From positions 21,702,001 through 21,766,000 of the forward strand of contig NC_086097.1 in NCBI RefSeq assembly GCF_963921235.1: a stretch of DNA of 64,000 nt, read 5' to 3'. Under the pieces are notes generated by a model. That model was not told the DNA's origin, did not search any database, and saw only the letters and a list, made by a program, of their open reading frames with translations. The position numbers were made by a program, and so were the translations under genes. Each line of letters begins with the position of its first letter. The first letter of the stretch is position 1. This document shows positions 20,349-61,943 of this stretch, in pieces. The stretch is from Mobula hypostoma. Its lineage: Eukaryota.

Positions 20349-20909
20349 GTTCGTCCATCGTCAACGTCAATGAGGACCTCAACACCATTATGATGGTGTC
20401 GAGACTAGCACATGATTTGGATTTAAGTGAGGGAGAGTTGCGCAGCGTCAGCCTCACGCTCTCTTCCTAATTCCCATCTGGATCCAGTGGCAAGACAGAG
20501 TCTAGACGGCTGGAGATGGGACTAGGCGCAGTGGATGACCAGGACGTCTTCTGTGTCTTGTCGTGCTCTAAGCGTTCCACGACGCTTGCAGAGACCGCCT
20601 TCTTGACCGTTGGACCTTCCATTGGTCTTGTCTGCTCAATCCGCCGGAGTCTGTCTTCACATGCTGGGATAGACAACTCCCTATCTCACCGAGGGTTTGA
20701 GACCCGTCGGCTACCCTCACCTGGTTTAGCCAGCTTGTCGAAGCCGTTGCCTGGGGTGTGGCCGCTGTCGCATGCAAACAGCTACGGGGAGCCACAGGTG
20801 AGAGCTGAGTGCCAGATGGGGACCAAAGGTGGACTAACCGCCTTGAAAAGGACGCGACATGTTCCCCCACCAGAGCTGCTACCCCTCCCTGACACCCCAT
20901 ACACCCCAA
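20349..20909 (-). mobile_element. Bipartite non-autonomous RTE derivative (RTE 5'UTR + RTE-like 3' end)
   Basis: ~20530-20908 is homologous to the RTE 5'UTR at ~60410-60780; perfect 12-bp TSD GCAAGGTAGCGT at 20337-20348 and 20910-20921. Confidence 0.85.
20716..20907 (-). ncRNA. Candidate HDV-like ribozyme (copy 1)
   Basis: P1 GGGGUGU/ACACCCC; P2 CUCACCUGU/AC(C)AGGUGAG; P3 GGC with L3 starting UCC; P4 CGGCUU/AAGCUG; J4/2 GCUAA. Confidence 0.5.
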
Positions 20910-54115: not shown

Positions 54116-56375
54116 TAATACTGGATGCACAAGAGAGAAAAAAATTAAAATCACGCAAACAATTGAAGCAAATAACAGCAGCATTCCAAACCAAAATTGA
54201 GTCCTTAGGTCCAAACCTCAGAGTAGCCTGGAGTAGGCCCAAAGCTTCTTATGTCTATGAACAACAAAATGAGCCTCTTTCTTTCCTCCCACCCCGACAC
54301 ATGGATAACTTTCAGCTCCAGGACTGGTCTAATTTTCCCTCATGTGGCAGTTCCTCCACCCCTGGCCTGCTGTTTTTCCAATTCCCCGTTGAAAGTAAAA
54401 GAAAAGCTGTAAATATTAGAAATCTGAAATGAAAATAGAAAATGCTGGAAACACATGGCAGGTCTGGCAGCATCTATGGAAGCGTTTCTTTCTCCACAGA
54501 TGCTGCTAGATTCGTCCAGTGTTCCCAGCGTTCTCTGCTTTCATTCCCCATTGAAAGCTCTGGTTGATTCCACTTCCAACCCCAGAGGCAGTTGGTGATA
54601 AATCACAAGCAAGCTTCATGAAAAATATTATCACAAATCTCCCCTATCTTCTAAATTCAGATTTCTGATTTATTTATCATGTGTACATTGAAACATACAC
54701 TGAAATGCATCATTTGCGTTAGCAACCAATGCAACCTCGGGATGTCCTGTGTGCAGCCCACAAGTATTGCCACACGTTCCAACGCCAACATAGCAAGCCC
54801 ACAGTGCTCGGCAAAACAACACAGATCACAGTAAGCGACAAAACAACAACAGCAAAACAAGCCCCATTCCTCTCTCCCAAACACTTCAAATTTAATTCCC
54901 CAATCCTTAAGCACTCTACTTAAGGAGGCATCTTCCTTTTATTTACCTGTTTAAATCCTTCAATAATATCTCTCCTTAAATCATCTTTTCTCCAAGGAGC
55001 ACATTACCGATGTAAAGTGTTCAGACTGTTTGTGTCGTTGCCTCTATTAGTATTTAACACAGGTAGATCTGTCAACTGAACGTCCTGATTTAAAAGCCAT
55101 AACTCTCTACTAACTGGTTCGCACTCCATTAAAAACGTATCTCAGTTCCTAAAGGTATACTTACACTCTTATGAGTTACTTCCTCTGTGAAAAGAACATT
55201 AAGCCCATATAAGTTAGTCACAGTTTGCATCTATTAAATTATATAACCTGTTTGCGTAGTGTAGTGGTTAGCGCAATTGCTGTACAATGCCAGCCTATAA
55301 GTTCGATTCCTGCCACTGTCTCTAAAGAGTTTGTATTGTACATTGTCCCTGCGACCACTTAGGTTTCCTCTGGGTGCTCTGGTTTCCTCCCACATTCCAA
55401 CGATGTATGATTAGGGTTAGTGAGTTGTGGTGAAGCTCGCCGACACTTGCGGGCTGGCCAGCATAATTCTTGCTGGTTTGATGCTAATGACGCATTTCAG
55501 TGTATACTTCAATGTCCATGTGATAAATAAAGCTAATCTTTATCTTTGTCAGTTAACTACTGACAGCAATGTACTGTGGTAAATGGAAATGAACTTCAGA
55601 ATACAGTCAGTCTCTTGGCCCTTTGTACACTGCACTCTACACTGTAAGCTGAATTTTTGATATCTCTAAAATATGCCTTTCAGATGTTGATAATTGGCCG
55701 TCTCTGAATTACAAGCAGGCTCCATTTTTAAGGCACACACAAAATGCTGGAGGAGCTCTCACAGATGCTGCCTGACGTGCTGAGTTCCTCCGGCATTTTG
55801 TGTGTTCTTCTGAATCTACCTCTCTGGATCACCTTCTAACCCTGGCATGACTGCCGTCAGCCTGTCTTGTCAAACACTGTATTTGGCAAACATTAAAAGG
55901 CCTACTCTAATATTTGCACGGAATTGTCTTCACAATGCTTCACAATCCTCCCGTAGGGCGTGCAGGTTAACTTGTGCTTGATCCAAGCCTGTCAGCAATT
56001 CTGTGAATAAAAAGAGACTTGCTATCATAAATGAGAAAGACTGCAGACGCTGGATATCTGAAACAGAAACAGAGAATGCTGGAGATATATATCAGGTCGG
56101 GCAGAATCTGTGGAGGCAGAAACAGAGTTAATGTTTCAGGGTGATATTTTAGTGAAAGTCTGTTAGCCTTTTTTGTCTAATTTTCTCCAGACATAATCAA
56201 TAATCACTTGCCACAGGCTTTTACTTTTCACCTTATCTGCAGATTCTTGTGATGTACAGCTTCTGTGCAACGCTCTTTTACACTCAATGTTCTAACTACT
56301 TGTTCTTCATCATGATGGATCACTGTCTTGCCACTCCTTTGGGCAACAACATTCCCAAACTCAATACATAAAATA

Positions 56376-56645
56376 CCCTCAAAGGCCACTTTATTAGGTA
56401 CGCCTGTACACCTACTGATCAATGCCAATATCTAATCAGCTAATCATGTGGCAGCAGCTCAGTGTATAAAACCATACAGACTGGGTCATCAGAATGGGGA
56501 AGAAATGTGATCTAAGTGACTTTGACTTTGGAATGATTGTTGGTGCCAGACGGGGTGGTTTGAGTATCTCAGACACTGGGATTTTCACGCACGACGGTTT
56601 CCAGAATTTGCAGAGAATAGTGCACAAACAAAAAATATCCAGTAG
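56376..56645 (+). mobile_element. Tc1 fragment (TIR + transposase N-terminus)
   Basis: GGCCACTTTATTAGGTAC TIR; MGKKCDLSDFDFGMIVGARRGGLSIS. Confidence 0.8.
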
Positions 56646-57437
56646 GCTCTTTTGTGCTGTTGCTTGCACTAGAGGGTAAGAGGCAGCGCTAACAACAGAA
56701 CATCCTTTATTAAAGGCAGAAACTCCTTTGAAAAAGCACTGTCTGATACAACAGTGCACACCCACCAGGTCTTAAATGTATACCCATCATTGCCGATTAA
56801 CTGGACTCTGAAAACTCACACTCGCTCCCCAAACATACTTTATTACTTGTGCACAAGGAGTACGGCATGGCTCCTGTCATCACACTGTTCTGAAGTTTGA
56901 ACAGAGAAATAATATTTTTATACAGGATTGACTAGCAGTTACAGACATTGACTAATTAGTAACCTTGTATATGTTCAGATTCCTTATGTGAAAGTGCCAT
57001 CGCCATTCACAATACAGGTGATAGAATTTAAAAGAAACTAAAAGCTAACAACTGATGATACTTTGAAGTTAGTAAAGTAGTTGTCCCTTAGTTGGTTTGT
57101 GTGGGCTCATGCATCTTTTGATTACATCCTATCCTGTCTTCATATGCCAAATTACTCTGATATCCCGCTATGCAAAGAAAAGCTATGTTTTTCAAAGACC
57201 TTTCTTGTCTGGACTACACCTTGTGCATTTCAACATTCTTATACATACCCTGGCTTCTACAGTCCAATGCTGTGGATGAAATTACTTTTCCTTGGAAACA
57301 TTCTTGTAAATCTGATATAGATATCTCTGTGCACACACCAAAGCTCATTATCAGAAACAGAATCAGGTTTATTCTCACTGACAAATGTGATGAAAGTTGT
57401 TGTGTTGCTGCAGCAGCAGAGTGTAATACATAAAATA

Positions 57438-58025
57438 CATACTGTGGCCAACTTAATAGGTACTCCTGTACACCTCGTTAACACAAATATCTAATCCGTC
57501 AATCATGGGGCAGTGACTCAATGCATAAAAGCATGCAGACATAGTCAAGAGGTTCAGTTGTTGTTTAGACCAAACATCAGGTGGGGAAGAAATGTGATCT
57601 AAGTGACTTTGACTGTGGAATGATTGTTGGTGCCAGATAGGGTGGTATCTCAGAAACTGCTGATCCCCTGAGGTTTTCATACATCTGGAGTTTACAGAGA
57701 ATGGTGCAAAAAACAGAAAAAAAAATCCAGTGAGCAGCAGTTCTGTCGGAAAAGCTCCTTGTTGATGAGAAAAGTGGGAAAAGCACCTTGTCCTGCCGAA
57801 GGGTTTCAGCCCAAAACATCGACGATACTCTTTTCCATAGATGCTGCCCGGCCTGCTGAGTTCCTCCAGCATTTCGTGTGTGTTGCTCGGATTTCCAGCG
57901 TTTGCAGATTTTCTCTTGTTTGTTAATGAGAGAGGTCAGAGGAGAATGGCCAGACTGTTTCAAGCTGAGAGGAAGGCAACAGTACCTCAAATAACTACGT
58001 GCTACAACAGTGTGCAGAAGTGCAT
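57438..58025 (+). mobile_element. Tc1 fragment interrupted by a Penelope terminus (~57788-57920)
   Basis: Same family as 56376-56645. Confidence 0.78.
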
Positions 58026-58113
58026 ATTCAAGTTCAGGTTCAAGTTTAATTGTCATTTAACATCATGCTAGTGGTAGTCCTTCGGATTCGAAGAAGACAT
58101 GCTGTTGTGCAAT

Positions 58114-59960
58114 TCATCTGTGGACACGGAGGTGGCTCTGCAGGCCCAGTCTGGAAGCGCAGAGTCTAGCACAATGGGGGCACTGGAAGTCCGTTGTTGT
58201 AATAATTGTGGCTGCTGTTCTGTGATGCCGCTCAGTGACAAGTCTGTTCAGGAGAATGCAGGCAAAAATCTTGCCTGCAATGGACAGCAGTGAGATAGCC
58301 CTGTAGTGTCCGCAGTCTGATTTGCTTCCCTTGTTCTCGTAGAGAGCCATGATGAGAGCGTTGCTGAAGTCGTCAGTCATCTCCTCTGTGATCCGGATGT
58401 CTTGGAACGCCTGTAAGGCGTTTGGGCCTAATGCTTTGTAGATCTCGGCAGGAATGCCATCCTGCCCTGTTGCTTTATTTGAGTTCATCTGCGAGATCGC
58501 TCTCTTGATCTCATCAGTAGAGGGCAGCAGGTCTAGGTCATCCAGGACTGGCTGCTGAGGAATCTGCTGTAAGACATCAGGATCAACTGTGGACGGCCTA
58601 TTGAGTAGGTTGAAAAAGTGTTCAGCCCAGCGGATTTTCAGTCCTTCCTGGTCTTTGGTCAGGCTCGACCCGTCAGATGACAGCAAGGGGGAGCATCCTG
58701 ATTTAGAAAGACAACAAGCTGACTTTATGGCGCTGAAGAACTCTCTGGTGGTATGCATGTCTGCATAGCGTTCCACCTGCTCAGCCTTTCTCTGCCACCA
58801 CTCGTCCTGCATTTCTCGCAGTTCTGCCCGTACTTTGGACTGCAGGTGTTTAAACTTGTCTGTCTTTGAGACAGATGACCGGTCATTCTGCCAGTCTGCA
58901 TAGGCCTTGTTCTTGGCCTGAAGGGCTGCTGAAATGGTCTCGTGGTTTTCATCAAACCAGTCTTGATGCACTCGGGTTTTCTGTCCGAGTACAGTTGTTG
59001 CAGTCTGCGCGATGACATCTTTGAACTGCGTCCACTTTTCAGAACAAGTTCCCACAAGCGGTGAATTGCCGGAGAGTTTTTCATTAAGTATATCTCGAAA
59101 ACGTTGGACTTGACCTGGGTCTTGCAGCCTGCCAATGTTGAATGACACTCTGACAGTCTTTGGCTGCTTACGATGCAAAGGGGCTACATGCAGGTTGAGG
59201 ACCGACCGAACCAGCCTGTGATCTGTCCAACACTCAGCACCTCGCGTGGCCTGGGTGATGGTGATGTCTTGAAGGTCACGCTGGCGTACTATGACATAGT
59301 CGAGTAGGTGCCAGTGTTTCGATCTGGGACGCATCCGGGTTGTTTTGTATTTGTTTGCAAGTCTGAACATCGTGTTAGTGATGCACAGGTTGTGCTCGGC
59401 ACACTTGCTCAGAAATAGCAGGCCGTTACTGTTTAGTTTTCCCACCCCATGTCTCCCAAGGACTCCATCCCAGTTGTCGCTGTCTGTCCCCACCCTAGCG
59501 TTGAAGTCACCCAAGTTGACGAGTTTGTCGCTGGCAGGGGTTGTCTGAATAGTCTGGTCCAGGTCCTTGTAGAACCTTTCCTTGTCTTCGTATGGACTCA
59601 TGAGAGTTGGTGCATAGACACTGACTATGGTAATATACCGGGACTTGCTGAGAGGAAAGCGGAACTTAGGGATATTCTTCAGCTAAGCAGTATTGATTGC
59701 AAAACCTACTCCGTGGATCCTGTTGTCAGTCTGTGATTTCCCTTTCCAAAAGAACGTATATCCACTCGCTGCTTCCTGTAATGAACCCTCGTCTACAAGC
59801 CTAGTCTCACTGAGTGCAGCGATATCAATGCGATAATGGCGAAGTTCAGTCGCTATGAGTGCTGTTCGTCTTTCAGGCCTTGCCACCTTGTCTCTAGCCA
59901 GCAAGATGCGGACGTTTCAGGCTCCAAAGATGAGTTTTCTTTGATTTGTTTTTCTTGATG
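58114..59960 (-). pseudogene. RTE ORF remnant (stop/frameshift in EN; 495-aa open segment 58114-59601)
   Basis: ORF track shows 59683-59904 and 58114-59601; no QG..LSP or YADD motifs. Confidence 0.85.
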
Positions 59961-60588
59961 CATGTCGACCGCTAAGGAGATGATCTGCCAGCCGCGGTTA
60001 GCTAGCCAGATGTTGTGGGGCAGGCAATGTTTAGGGTACCTTTTCTAACCCCCTCCCTCATGCGAGGGTGGGCAGTGCTGTCCTAAAAAGGGCTGCCCAG
60101 TCGCCCTGGATGCTACTGGACATCTCTGCTGCCCCGGGTACAGAGACGAACGACCAGTGGTCCAAAAGCCGCCTACGTGCAGGTTTGTGACTACAACTGC
60201 CAGTGTTCCGCCTGTTGCTTCGCCACTCCCCCATCGCCGCAGGGCTTGACGAGTTGAGTTCGGACTGAGATGAATCGCACAACAGAAACCCATGCGTGAT
60301 GGAGTTTTAAGTGGAACAGCCGTTGCACAGAGGCAATCCCACTCTCTCGGCAGATGAGACCTTGATCCAGTGGCACGGACAACCATTACGGCTGGAGGTC
60401 TCTCCTGCTGCAGTGGATGACCAGGACGTCTAAGTGTCTTGTCGTGCTCTCAGCGCTCCACAATGCCTGCTGAGCCTCCCTTCTGGACCATTAATCCGTC
60501 TCCTCCGCTCAATCTGCCAGGGCCAGACTTCACATGCTGGGACAGGCAGTTCCCCACCTCACTGAGGGTTGAAGACCCATCGGCTACC

Positions 60589-60779
60589 CTCACCTCGTTT
60601 GGCCCGTCTGCTGAAACAGTTTCCCAGAGTGTGGCTGCTACGCGTGTTACGGCTACTTGGAGCCACAGGTGAGACCTGAGCGCCAGGTGGGCACCAAATG
60701 TGGACAAGCTGCCCTGAAAAGGGCACGGCAGGCCCCCCCACCAGAGGTGTTACCCCTCCCTAGACACCCCATACACCCC
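60589..60779 (-). ncRNA. Candidate HDV-like ribozyme (copy 2) at the RTE 5' end
   Basis: P1 GGGGUGU/ACACUCU with G1-U wobble followed by GG (P1.1); P2 CUCACCUGU/AC(G)AGGUGAG; P3 GGC/GCC, L3 starting UCC; P4 CUGUUU/AGACGG; J4/2 GCCAA. Confidence 0.55.
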
Positions 60780-60981
60780 ATGAATACCCTTGAATACAGA
60801 CAAATGAAACAGCGTTACTCCGGGGGCATAGTGTAAAACTCAGTACCAACAGTCAAACACAGCACAAGGGACATAAGAGAGCAATAACACACAGTCAAAC
60901 AAAAATATAATACAAAAATATATTTTTGAATATACTACATGTTAATGGGGTACAGCAGCAGAAGACCACAAGAATACTGTA

Positions 60982-61038
60982 CATTCTGTGGCCACTTTAT
61001 TGGGGACAGGATGTACCTAATATAGTGGCCTGTGAGTG
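60982..61038. mobile_element. 57-bp Tc1 TIR-only mini element
   Basis: CATTCTGTGGCCACTTTATT..AATATAGTGGCCTGTGAGTG flanked by TA on both sides. Confidence 0.6.
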
Positions 61039-61943
61039 TATACTATAAATTAAAATAAGAAATATAAATTTAAAAAAATAAATAAGTAAAGCAAAAATAA
61101 TGAGGTCGTGTTCTTGGATCATTCAGAAATTTAATGTTGGATGAGGAAAAATCTGCTGCTAAAACCTCAAATGTATATCTTCGCATTCAACATTGAGTGT
61201 GAATTTTTTACTGTCCCATCTTAATAGCTTACTTTGTTCTCAGAGCTGAGGTTGGAGTTTTTCGGCATAAGTGTGTTGTGCATTTTATAGATTTAGTTTG
61301 TTGAGATACATGGGTCCCATATCACACCACGTTTTGTATGTTTTACATTGACACAAAAATGGTGATTTTAGCTGCGGCCATTTGTTATACACGTCTCTGA
61401 TGTCTTCGATTGTTTATTGCCGTTTGGACATTCGACACGAGTGCTCATTAGTTCTTGGTATTAGTTGTGCCCGACCTTGTCATTGCAGCTGTAACAGAAT
61501 CAATCTTTAATATGTGGGCGTATATTTAATATTTACAAATGCTTACCAAGGCTGTATAACCTGGTGAATGTATACCAGTGTCACTCACCTCCACAAAGCT
61601 GAGATCAGGGAGCATAGTAATGTTAGAAGTACAACTGGGAGTTTTACTCCTGGCGCATGCTCTTCCGTTCAGCAAGATCACCTTATTTTGAGTCTTCTAG
61701 ATTCCTCAGCATTTTGCGCTGTACCTACACTGTTGGAAACTTCATTGAGGTCACCCTTCATTCTTTTAAACTCTGGAGAACAGAGGTTTATCAACAGGAG
61801 AAAGTCTGCAGATGCTGGAGATCCAAAGCAACACACACAAAATGCTGGAGGATCTCAGCAGGTCAAACAGCATCTATGGAAAAGAGTAAACAGTCTGAGA
61901 CCCTTCTTCAGGACAGAAATAGAGGTTTATCTGCTCAGTTGGA

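Follow-up and report, generated by a model that had tools for sequence, protein, structure and literature searches.

The first 191 nucleotides (nt) of a long interspersed nuclear element (LINE) on the minus strand of a 64,000-nt stretch of the Mobula hypostoma genome (contig NC_086097.1, positions 21,702,001 to 21,766,000; hereafter the window) carry the pattern of ribozymes of the type known from hepatitis delta virus (HDV). The observation itself, made in an earlier note from the letters of this DNA, is confirmed with a number of corrections. Judged from its sequence, this 5' head is, with a probability of about 0.7, a genuine self-cleaving ribozyme of the large drz-Agam-2-like kind with an extra hairpin at the end of loop L3, and it would most likely set where an RTE-type LINE, together with several abundant non-autonomous elements derived from it, begins at the 5' end. 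The assignment is supported by the fit of the fold, by a predicted cut that falls on the 5' end of the family, by covariation in helix P4 and in the hairpin of the joining segment J1/2, and by an invariant core. From these observations we infer catalysis, co-transcription and tolerance of the insert.

The head belongs to a large repeat family with a sharply defined start. A search with positions 60500-60900 of the window against the species' own 3.5-Gb genome gave 4204 first-look candidates, 40 of which were scored. Of these, 39 are not the query itself, and 31 of the 39 start within 2 nt of G60779, the base in front of which cleavage is predicted (G1). Two subfamilies were distinguished, an old one including the LINE copy of the window, which is a decayed member with ~88-90% identity to its relatives, and a young one represented in the window by a second carrier of the head. 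Whether full-length copies begin at G60779, a question raised by the earlier note, can be answered in the affirmative: a GGGG start is found in 27 of 30 fetched old loci and in 25 of 30 fetched young loci, with unrelated flanks upstream in both. Exact target-site duplications of at least 8 nt surround 18 of the 30 young loci, adjoining nucleotide 1 in 11 of these 18 and lying 1 nt off in 3. The first bases and the duplications therefore imply that the RNA copied into DNA began at G1 and not at a second GGGGUGU repeat at index 10.

RNA indices are given as 60780 minus the window position, and a prime marks the 3' strand of a helix (Table 1). The nested double-pseudoknot order P1-J1/2-P2-P3-L3-P3'-P1'-P1.1-P4-J4/2-P2' is present in both subfamily consensuses and in individual copies, as found by a descriptor, and helices were scored in an alignment of 60 fetched copies (30 old, 30 young) with the full pseudoknotted structure. 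P1 of the consensus (GGGGUGU/ACACCCC) consists of seven Watson-Crick pairs counted from the cleavage site, where the purine at +1 faces a pyrimidine (G1-C154), and thus agrees with the 6 to 7 bp of HDV-like ribozymes. The strands GGGGUGU and ACACUCU had been placed correctly on the minus strand, but the reported G1-U wobble turned out to be decay: both G-U wobbles of P1 are private to the window copy, and the cleavage-site pair is G-C in 46 of the 60 copies, G-U in 8 (via CpG decay) and something else in 6. P1.1 exists as described before, with G155 G156 facing C121 C120 of UCCAAGUA, and is paired in 90% of cells, the losses again being CpG decay. The long self-pairing J1/2 was recovered as a 93-nt hairpin, the base of which is built from the second GGGGUGU repeat.

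The remaining elements likewise come out more regular in the consensus than in the window copy. P2 of the consensus (CUCACCUGU with A(C)CAGGUGAG) has one bulged C183 and, with three further pairs possible, comprises 9 to 12 bp; it is the same in both subfamilies and paired in 97.5% of cells. The 9-bp P2 with a bulge that had been noticed in the window copy (CUCACCUG, 107-114, with GAGGUGAG, 184-191) is a real helix, but its irregularity is a private C184-to-G change and not the bulge of the family, and in the consensus G114-C184 is paired. In L3, U119 and G124 occupy the places of HDV U20 and G25, the role of which has been described (PMC13635239), and the consensus J1.1/4 is UAAA. The P4 hairpin also stands, with its exact strands corrected to CUGUUU (161-166)/AGACGG (171-176) for the window copy; the old consensus CCGUCU/AGACGG with the loop CGGC is Watson-Crick throughout. 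J4/2 was correctly read as G-C-C-A-A at index 177-181, and the C-N-R-A motif followed by P2' is found as CCAA in the old and CUAA in the young subfamily if U115-A182 pairs and C183 bulges.

Table 1. Positions in the window of the predicted ribozyme elements, the LINE copy and the second head carrier
Feature	Position	Strand	Remarks
5' region of LINE copy	60589-60779	minus	First 191 nt of the retrotransposon
P1 5' strand GGGGUGU (G1-U7)	60773..60779	minus	Predicted cleavage 5' of G60779, the element's first base
J1/2 peripheral hairpin "P1.2", index 11-103, 93 nt, imperfect	60677..60769	minus	Minimum free energy (MFE) folding and alifold
P2 5' strand, index 107-115, possible extension 104-106	60665..60676	minus	Pairs with 60586-60598
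P3 5' strand GGC, index 116-118	60662..60664	minus	98.3% paired with 60633-60635
L3 core UCCAAGUA, 8 nt (UCCCCGUA in young subfamily)	60654..60661	minus	C120 C121 in P1.1
Alternative P3' partner (reading A), index 127-129	60651-60653	minus	GCC in window copy, GCU in consensus
Atypical insert, hairpin GCUG-loop-CAGC plus one G in consensus	60636..60653	minus	Stem mismatched in window copy
P3 3' strand GCC (reading B), index 145-147	60633..60635	minus	Directly before P1'; from sequence, descriptor and alignment
P1 3' strand ACACUCU, index 148-154	60626..60632	minus	Family consensus ACACCCC
P1.1 3' strand GG (G155 G156)	60624..60625	minus	With C121 C120
P4 hairpin, index 161-176, loop CAGC	60604..60619	minus	6 bp; 3/6 pairs changed on both sides between subfamilies
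J4/2 C-C-A-A	60599..60602	minus	C60602 (index 178), candidate catalytic cytosine
P2 3' strand, index 182-194	60586..60598	minus	G60596, mismatch private to window copy
LINE copy, apurinic/apyrimidinic endonuclease (APE) plus reverse transcriptase (RT)	60779 down to ~58069	minus	~2.7 kb; RT internally deleted
Open reading frame (ORF) remnant	58114..59682	minus	C-terminal endonuclease part, first RT motifs, C-terminal Cys2His2-like motif
Second head carrier, ~559-nt non-autonomous, young subfamily	20349..20907	minus	12-nt duplication ACGCTACCTTGC at flanks

The comparison of the two subfamilies is informative because the young copies are 95-98% alike, so that differences which they share against the old ones are changes of a master copy and not decay. 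Between old and young, P4 changed from CCGUCU/AGACGG to CGGCUU/AAGCCG, i.e., on both sides in three pairs (27-29 of the 60 copies each), and all pairs remained Watson-Crick. The J1/2 hairpin acquired one two-sided change (G-C to A-U, 26 copies) and four one-sided changes that keep the pair, with none that breaks it. Positions 4-5 of L3 went from AA to CC, making UCCCCGU an exact instance of UYYHCGY, and the N position of J4/2 changed from C179 to U, which singles out C178 as the conserved cytosine. Other differences in the core region concern J1.1/4 (UA to GC) and two loops, that of P4 and that of the insert hairpin, and fall where the descriptor leaves freedom; P1, P1.1, P2, P3, U119, G124, C178 and A180-A181 are identical in both subfamilies.

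These regularities extend beyond the consensuses. Standard pairs make up 97.1% of the cells over the 60 copies, compared with 36-50% when the partners are slid by 1-3 columns. Genome-wide, a P4 pattern had 1827 matches and its control 0, only two haplotypes being common, and a pattern leaving P1' free had 2684 matches versus 13 in a reversed control. Single-copy changes aside, no alternative type of P1' occurs among the 100 matches listed of these 2684. By eye and uncounted, CCCTGG and CCCCAG are about equally common among the matches listed, as CpG decay predicts, and the master should therefore have G1-C154.

The published RNArobo descriptor for HDV-like ribozymes (PMC4870747) prescribes P1 of the form R...Y, J1/2 of at most 51 nt, a P2 of 6 bp, a P3 of 3 bp, the L3 motif UYYHCGY, an adjacent P1', RN, a loose P4 and CNRA. 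It was relaxed to J1/2 of up to 120 nt, to L3 of up to 30-32 nt or, alternatively, J3/1 of up to 20-22 nt, to at most 1 nt between P2 and P3, and to at most 2 nt after CNRA. In the old consensus, the match places P1 at nucleotide 1 (also 10), P1' at 148 and the cytosine at 178. Among 3000 dinucleotide shuffles, a match anchored at nucleotide 1 appeared 0 times with the long L3 and once with the J3/1 insert, and a match anywhere 2 and 5 times. The young consensus also matches with P1 at nucleotide 1, and its 2500 shuffles gave 0 and 0 anchored matches and 1 and 0 anywhere. A search allowing an insertion in L3 or J3/1, which the earlier note had suggested, therefore finds the consensus in the register of the first base. 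With its two alternatives, the relaxed descriptor is passed by 11 and 12 of 30 old copies and by 19 and 18 of 30 young copies. With the L3 motif left unrelaxed, 17 of the 30 young copies still pass. The failing copies have point mutations, often from CpG decay.

Applied to both strands of the window (128 kb), the relaxed descriptor has 0 matches; the window copy fails because of G184. This failure and an ordinary folding energy are what might recommend the view that a chance pattern had been seen in one decayed repeat copy. Such a view is scarcely credible and already contradicted, as the pattern belongs to the family as a whole, improves in the consensus and recurs in thousands of copies.

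A number of findings weigh against a cleaving RNA. The descriptor was relaxed after the candidate had been seen, and its canonical form is disrupted by the insert: the letters of the L3 rule (UYYHCGY, ~7-8 nt) fit, with UCCCCGU in young and UCCAAGU in old copies, but with length and adjacency enforced 0 of 30 copies pass. At gathering thresholds, Rfam has no match in the window, and at E of at most 10 it has no ribozyme family on the window copy, on an old copy or on a badly decayed deletion copy with a shortened insert. The best Rfam family match of a young copy, RF02682 (the F. prausnitzii HDV ribozyme; 13.2 bits, E = 3.6, threshold 44), is at chance level, yet it aligns GGGCAACGG...CCGGCUAA in the modelled register and GGCUAA on J4/2. 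That standard descriptors might miss this variant had been anticipated, and both Rfam and the strict descriptor indeed fail. HDV and CPEB3 ribozymes have a G-U wobble at the cleavage site. The family has a G-C pair in this place, though the published descriptor allows R-Y. Full-text literature searches, with key papers of the Luptak laboratory outside their scope, returned nothing on this family and no HDV-like ribozyme described as having an insertion at this position. The MFE stability is no better than that of shuffles (z = +0.96), and folding stability was set aside as uninformative for recognizing a ribozyme. For twister, hammerhead and other ribozyme families, nothing was found at E of at most 10 on the window, old and young copies.

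The distribution of the covariation has to be added to these points. The earlier note had named P1, P2 and P4 as the helices in which covariation should be sought; P4 shows it in three pairs and the J1/2 hairpin in one, while P1 and P2, like P3 and P1.1, have no subfamily-level covariation but invariance, which any conserved function could explain. The pseudoknot helices thus rest on conservation and motif fit and not on covariation. Given no structure, RNAalifold joins G2-G4 to the CCC of P1' and also yields both the J1/2 hairpin and P4.

Relatives outside the species give a mixed picture. The young element is present in public runs of several other organisms, none of them recorded as RNA, and contigs of four runs, at 80% likeness, end at 20907, the first base of the element. 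In runs X10 and X11 from two organisms, the majority differences listed lie in the J1/2 domain and P4, with none in P1', P1.1, the L3 core, P3, P2 or J4/2; these contigs have low depth, and their representativeness is uncertain. Among the unfavorable changes are U to C at young index 166 of P4, where the partner is unchanged and a C-A mismatch results, G84 to U, which breaks a J1/2 pair in both organisms, and G38 to A, which breaks another in one of them. Among 78 related metagenome LINE loci, the 20 examined all lacked an HDV-like motif upstream of the ORF with Rfam or relaxed descriptors, and the 7 searched at E of at most 5 had no ribozyme. The related loci have no similarity to the 5' head described here, and as single copies that are possibly decayed or 5'-truncated they make a weak blank.

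Much of this could be accommodated by a structured 5' untranslated region (UTR) that does not cut at all but has another job, e.g., as an internal promoter or as a translation or protein-binding element, with G1 as the transcription start and the likeness to HDV as a coincidence. Covariation that backs just two ordinary hairpins, the missing significant Rfam match and the broken canonical geometry are all in keeping with it, and a fixed start site is equally expected to give a precise 5' end. A promoter role is plausible since the first 77 nt of L1Tc are promoter and ribozyme in one (PMC3383444). Such a UTR has to contend with a 7-nt perfect complement of the 5' end standing exactly after a 3-bp P3, with GG/CC, UCCNNG and CNAA following in the right order and unchanged in two subfamilies, with a combination that 3000 shuffles produced 0-1 times and 2500 shuffles not at all, and with variation solely at positions that are free in the HDV consensus. 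In view of both sides, we regard a non-cleaving UTR as the main alternative, unlikely but deserving of some weight.

The self-cleaving ribozyme that we favor would have to accommodate the insert, which measures 18 nt in the old and 20 nt in the young subfamily and lies between the 8-nt L3 core and P3'/P1'; between old and young, its hairpin stem was kept and its loop grew from 9 to 11 nt. The approximately 20 extra nt and two alternative partners for P3 (GCC at 127-129 and 145-147) had been recognized in the earlier note, and both triplets are conserved in both subfamilies. In reading A, P3' directly follows the 8-nt loop and leaves 18-20 nt between P3' and P1'; in reading B, P3' is the GCC adjoining P1', and L3 comprises 26-28 nt with an internal hairpin. 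PMC3774820 gives the rule that P1' stands immediately downstream of L3/P3, and this adjacency is preserved by reading B. A shorter spacer was found in only 4 genomic copies that look like sporadic deletions, and the insert is therefore the norm of the family. In the genomic HDV ribozyme, U27, the last nucleotide of L3, can be deleted with activity kept, so that the end of L3 is a plausible site for an insertion pointing outward.

The same insert could be the scar of a loss: a formerly canonical HDV-like ribozyme would have been disabled by the 18-nt insertion, its core recently inherited and the family now relying on other means. The insert does resemble a local duplication, with GUAGC at index 124-128 and 139-143 of the window copy, and the descriptor does not allow an insert of this kind. 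It is shared by both subfamilies, and the 4 copies with a shorter spacer are the exceptions; since the split, moreover, P4 has changed by three compensated pairs with the core intact, and the young subfamily has multiplied to many copies that are 95-98% alike, the pattern expected of continued selection. A disabled ribozyme is thus distinctly improbable.

A competing helix, GUGGCU/AGCCAC, had been pointed out together with the suggestion of a conformationally regulated ribozyme. The helix is present and is used by MFE folding, and RNAalifold predicts it as a 7-bp helix, UGUGGCU/GGCCACA, which competes with P1 and P2 because it is P3 extended into P1' and P2. For conformational regulation, nothing was obtained beyond the existence of this helix.

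Within the proposed ribozyme model, the elements would be contained in longer transcripts, from the host or from read-through, and their head would fold into a nested double pseudoknot consisting of P1 (1-7/148-154), P2 (107-115/182-191), P3 (116-118/145-147), P1.1 (C120 C121/G156 G155) and P4 (161-176), with the 93-nt J1/2 hairpin holding P1 and P2 together. C178 of J4/2, together with a metal ion near U119/G124, would cut the chain 5' of G1. The RNA released in this way would carry the element's first base at its 5' end and be reverse-transcribed into new copies. The hairpin of 17-19 nt at the 3' end of L3, before the 3' strand of P3, would presumably point away from the core.

Most carriers of the head are not LINEs. 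In the old subfamily, only 3 of 30 fetched loci (the window copy, L014 and L029) continue as LINE, and the remaining ones are short, non-autonomous and have either the first ~371 nt or the first ~498 nt in common; the bulk of the copies are non-autonomous elements of ~520-560 nt with this 5' head. In one short kind among loci L002-L030, the first ~498 nt are fused straight to the last ~30 nt of the LINE's own 3' tail, and in the other the first ~371 nt are fused to ~140 nt of unrelated sequence. The young carrier in the window is just 78% like the LINE copy, but the 30 fetched young copies are 95-98% identical to this carrier; they are ~560 nt long and end with GACGAAC followed by short AAC-type repeats. 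The carrier was probably paired with a different LINE, because its tail differs from that of the LINE at 58069-60779. Altogether, the head recurs in three kinds of non-autonomous elements whose 3' parts differ and, as far as these alignments indicate, behaves as a module recombined with different tails. The general Rfam scans, which did not include a dedicated search, gave no tRNA, 5S or 7SL match on the head.

In several young copies (L035-L064), G1 is separated from the target-site duplication by 1-5 additional bases, often T, and many upstream flanks of young copies end in T or TT. These T-rich junction bases may reflect untemplated addition or a target preference.

The LINE itself is represented in the window by a remnant. 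The C-terminal part of an AP-type endonuclease in its ORF was recognized by PF14529 (E = 2.4e-5, just below the Pfam cut-off), and the RT is internally deleted, as the ORF jumps from the first RT motifs to a C-terminal Cys2His2-like motif. Longer protein relatives of 1000-1090 amino acids combine PF03372/PF14529 with PF00078 on contigs of 3.4-4.5 kb. The 3' UTR of ~45 nt after the stop codon lacks an A-run or poly(A), and its terminus reads ...GGACUACCACUA or, with more letters given, ...GGACTACCACTA. The compact build of a single long ORF with APE endonuclease and RT, combined with a very short 3' UTR without poly(A), is that of RTE elements; by architecture the LINE fits the RTE type, and membership in the clade is plausible, though the names attached to its protein relatives point to no clade.

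Further observations concern the LINE and its surroundings. The Cys2His2-like motif CPHC...H...H at the ORF C terminus (58114-58240, minus strand) is nearly invariant across 11 aligned relatives and, on this comparison, is a conserved zinc-finger-like tail of this LINE lineage. In the 3' tail (58075-58094, minus strand), UUCGAAUCC lies inside the small inverted repeat CUUCUUCGAAUCCGAAGG, which might fold into a stem-loop that the reverse transcriptase recognizes. Approximately 200 nt upstream of the LINE start, a near-perfect inverted repeat of ~75 nt (60973-61047) has sub-threshold matches to microRNA precursors on both strands (best E = 0.06, far under gathering) and is probably a small hairpin-forming repeat. 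Downstream of the LINE, 56363-56559 and 57425-57646 are mutual repeats (93% identical over 73 nt, 76% over ~119 nt); similar repeats are scattered through the window and belong to other interspersed repeat families.

Processing of 5' ends of non-LTR elements by ribozymes is already known, and what is new are the insert, the G-C pair at the cleavage site and ribozyme-headed families resembling short interspersed nuclear elements (SINEs). A reading that joins these features is offered tentatively and with some doubt: the hairpin would be a third peripheral domain grafted on the 3' end of L3 by the active site, P3 would lie in a three-way junction, the cleavage-site pair would be a Watson-Crick G-C, the 7-bp helix might serve as a folding switch, and the ribozyme would be a portable head substituting, in several SINE-like families with different LINE-derived tails, for the Pol III-derived head that is usual. 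Should this RNA cleave, the HDV fold can take up a sizeable insertion next to its active-site loop, and since descriptors and covariance models forbid an insertion there, similar ribozymes have probably been missed in large animal genomes. Ribozyme-headed non-autonomous retrotransposons would then have amplified to thousands of copies, with a defined RNA 5' end made without a promoter of their own. The two subfamilies plus the relatives in other organisms represent a natural mutation set for telling which parts matter.

Among known systems, the closest is the drz-Agam-2 family of HDV-like ribozymes, which was reportedly found by Ruminski et al. in 2011 at the 5' ends of mosquito RTE elements. 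Both stand at the very 5' end of a compact LINE with APE and RT, with the cleavage site (here predicted) at the element's first base, and both have a 7-bp P1, a 2-bp P1.1 and a CNRA J4/2. Webb et al. 2016 (PMC4908430) describe for drz-Agam-2 a layout that speeds cleavage, in which the linkers are short, the J1/2 domain is structured and P2 is long; short linkers around a large structured J1/2 are likewise found here, and P2 measures 12 bp in Agam-2 and 9-12 bp in the present family. Unlike drz-Agam-2, the latter has 17-19 additional nt, folded as a hairpin, between the L3 core and the 3' strand of P3, a P2 with a single bulged C, G-C pairing at the cleavage site and no detectable Rfam match, and it resides in a large host genome (3.5 Gb) in which the head also stands on abundant non-autonomous elements of ~520-560 nt.

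According to PMC3774820 and PMC6765202, HDV-like ribozymes are established at the 5' ends of R2, R4, L1Tc, Baggins and RTE and also in some SINEs; the RTE-borne ones are cited as "RTE [12]" in the former and are cited in the latter, too. The Pr77 ribozyme of trypanosome L1Tc/NARTc (PMC3185411, PMC3383444 and PMC6765202) is likewise HDV-like, lies in the first bases of a LINE and is common to a non-autonomous partner. It releases the element RNA from co-transcripts, the same role as proposed here, but it is a minimal ribozyme of 77 nt that doubles as a promoter, in contrast to ~191 nt with two peripheral hairpins. R2 ribozymes share J1/2 loops of tens to hundreds of nucleotides, a variable P4 and a small number of fixed letters (four besides the catalytic C), and deviant L3 spacing is known once, from the jewel wasp. 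R2 is site-specific in rDNA and is cut from a 28S co-transcript, often upstream of the junction (PMC3774820), whereas insertion is dispersed here and accompanied by target-site duplications. Finally, PMC8501958 and PMC7761336 report twister variants at the 5' ends of RTE elements, including Perere-3 of Schistosoma; 5' processing of an RTE-type LINE is proposed there as it is here, but with a different fold.

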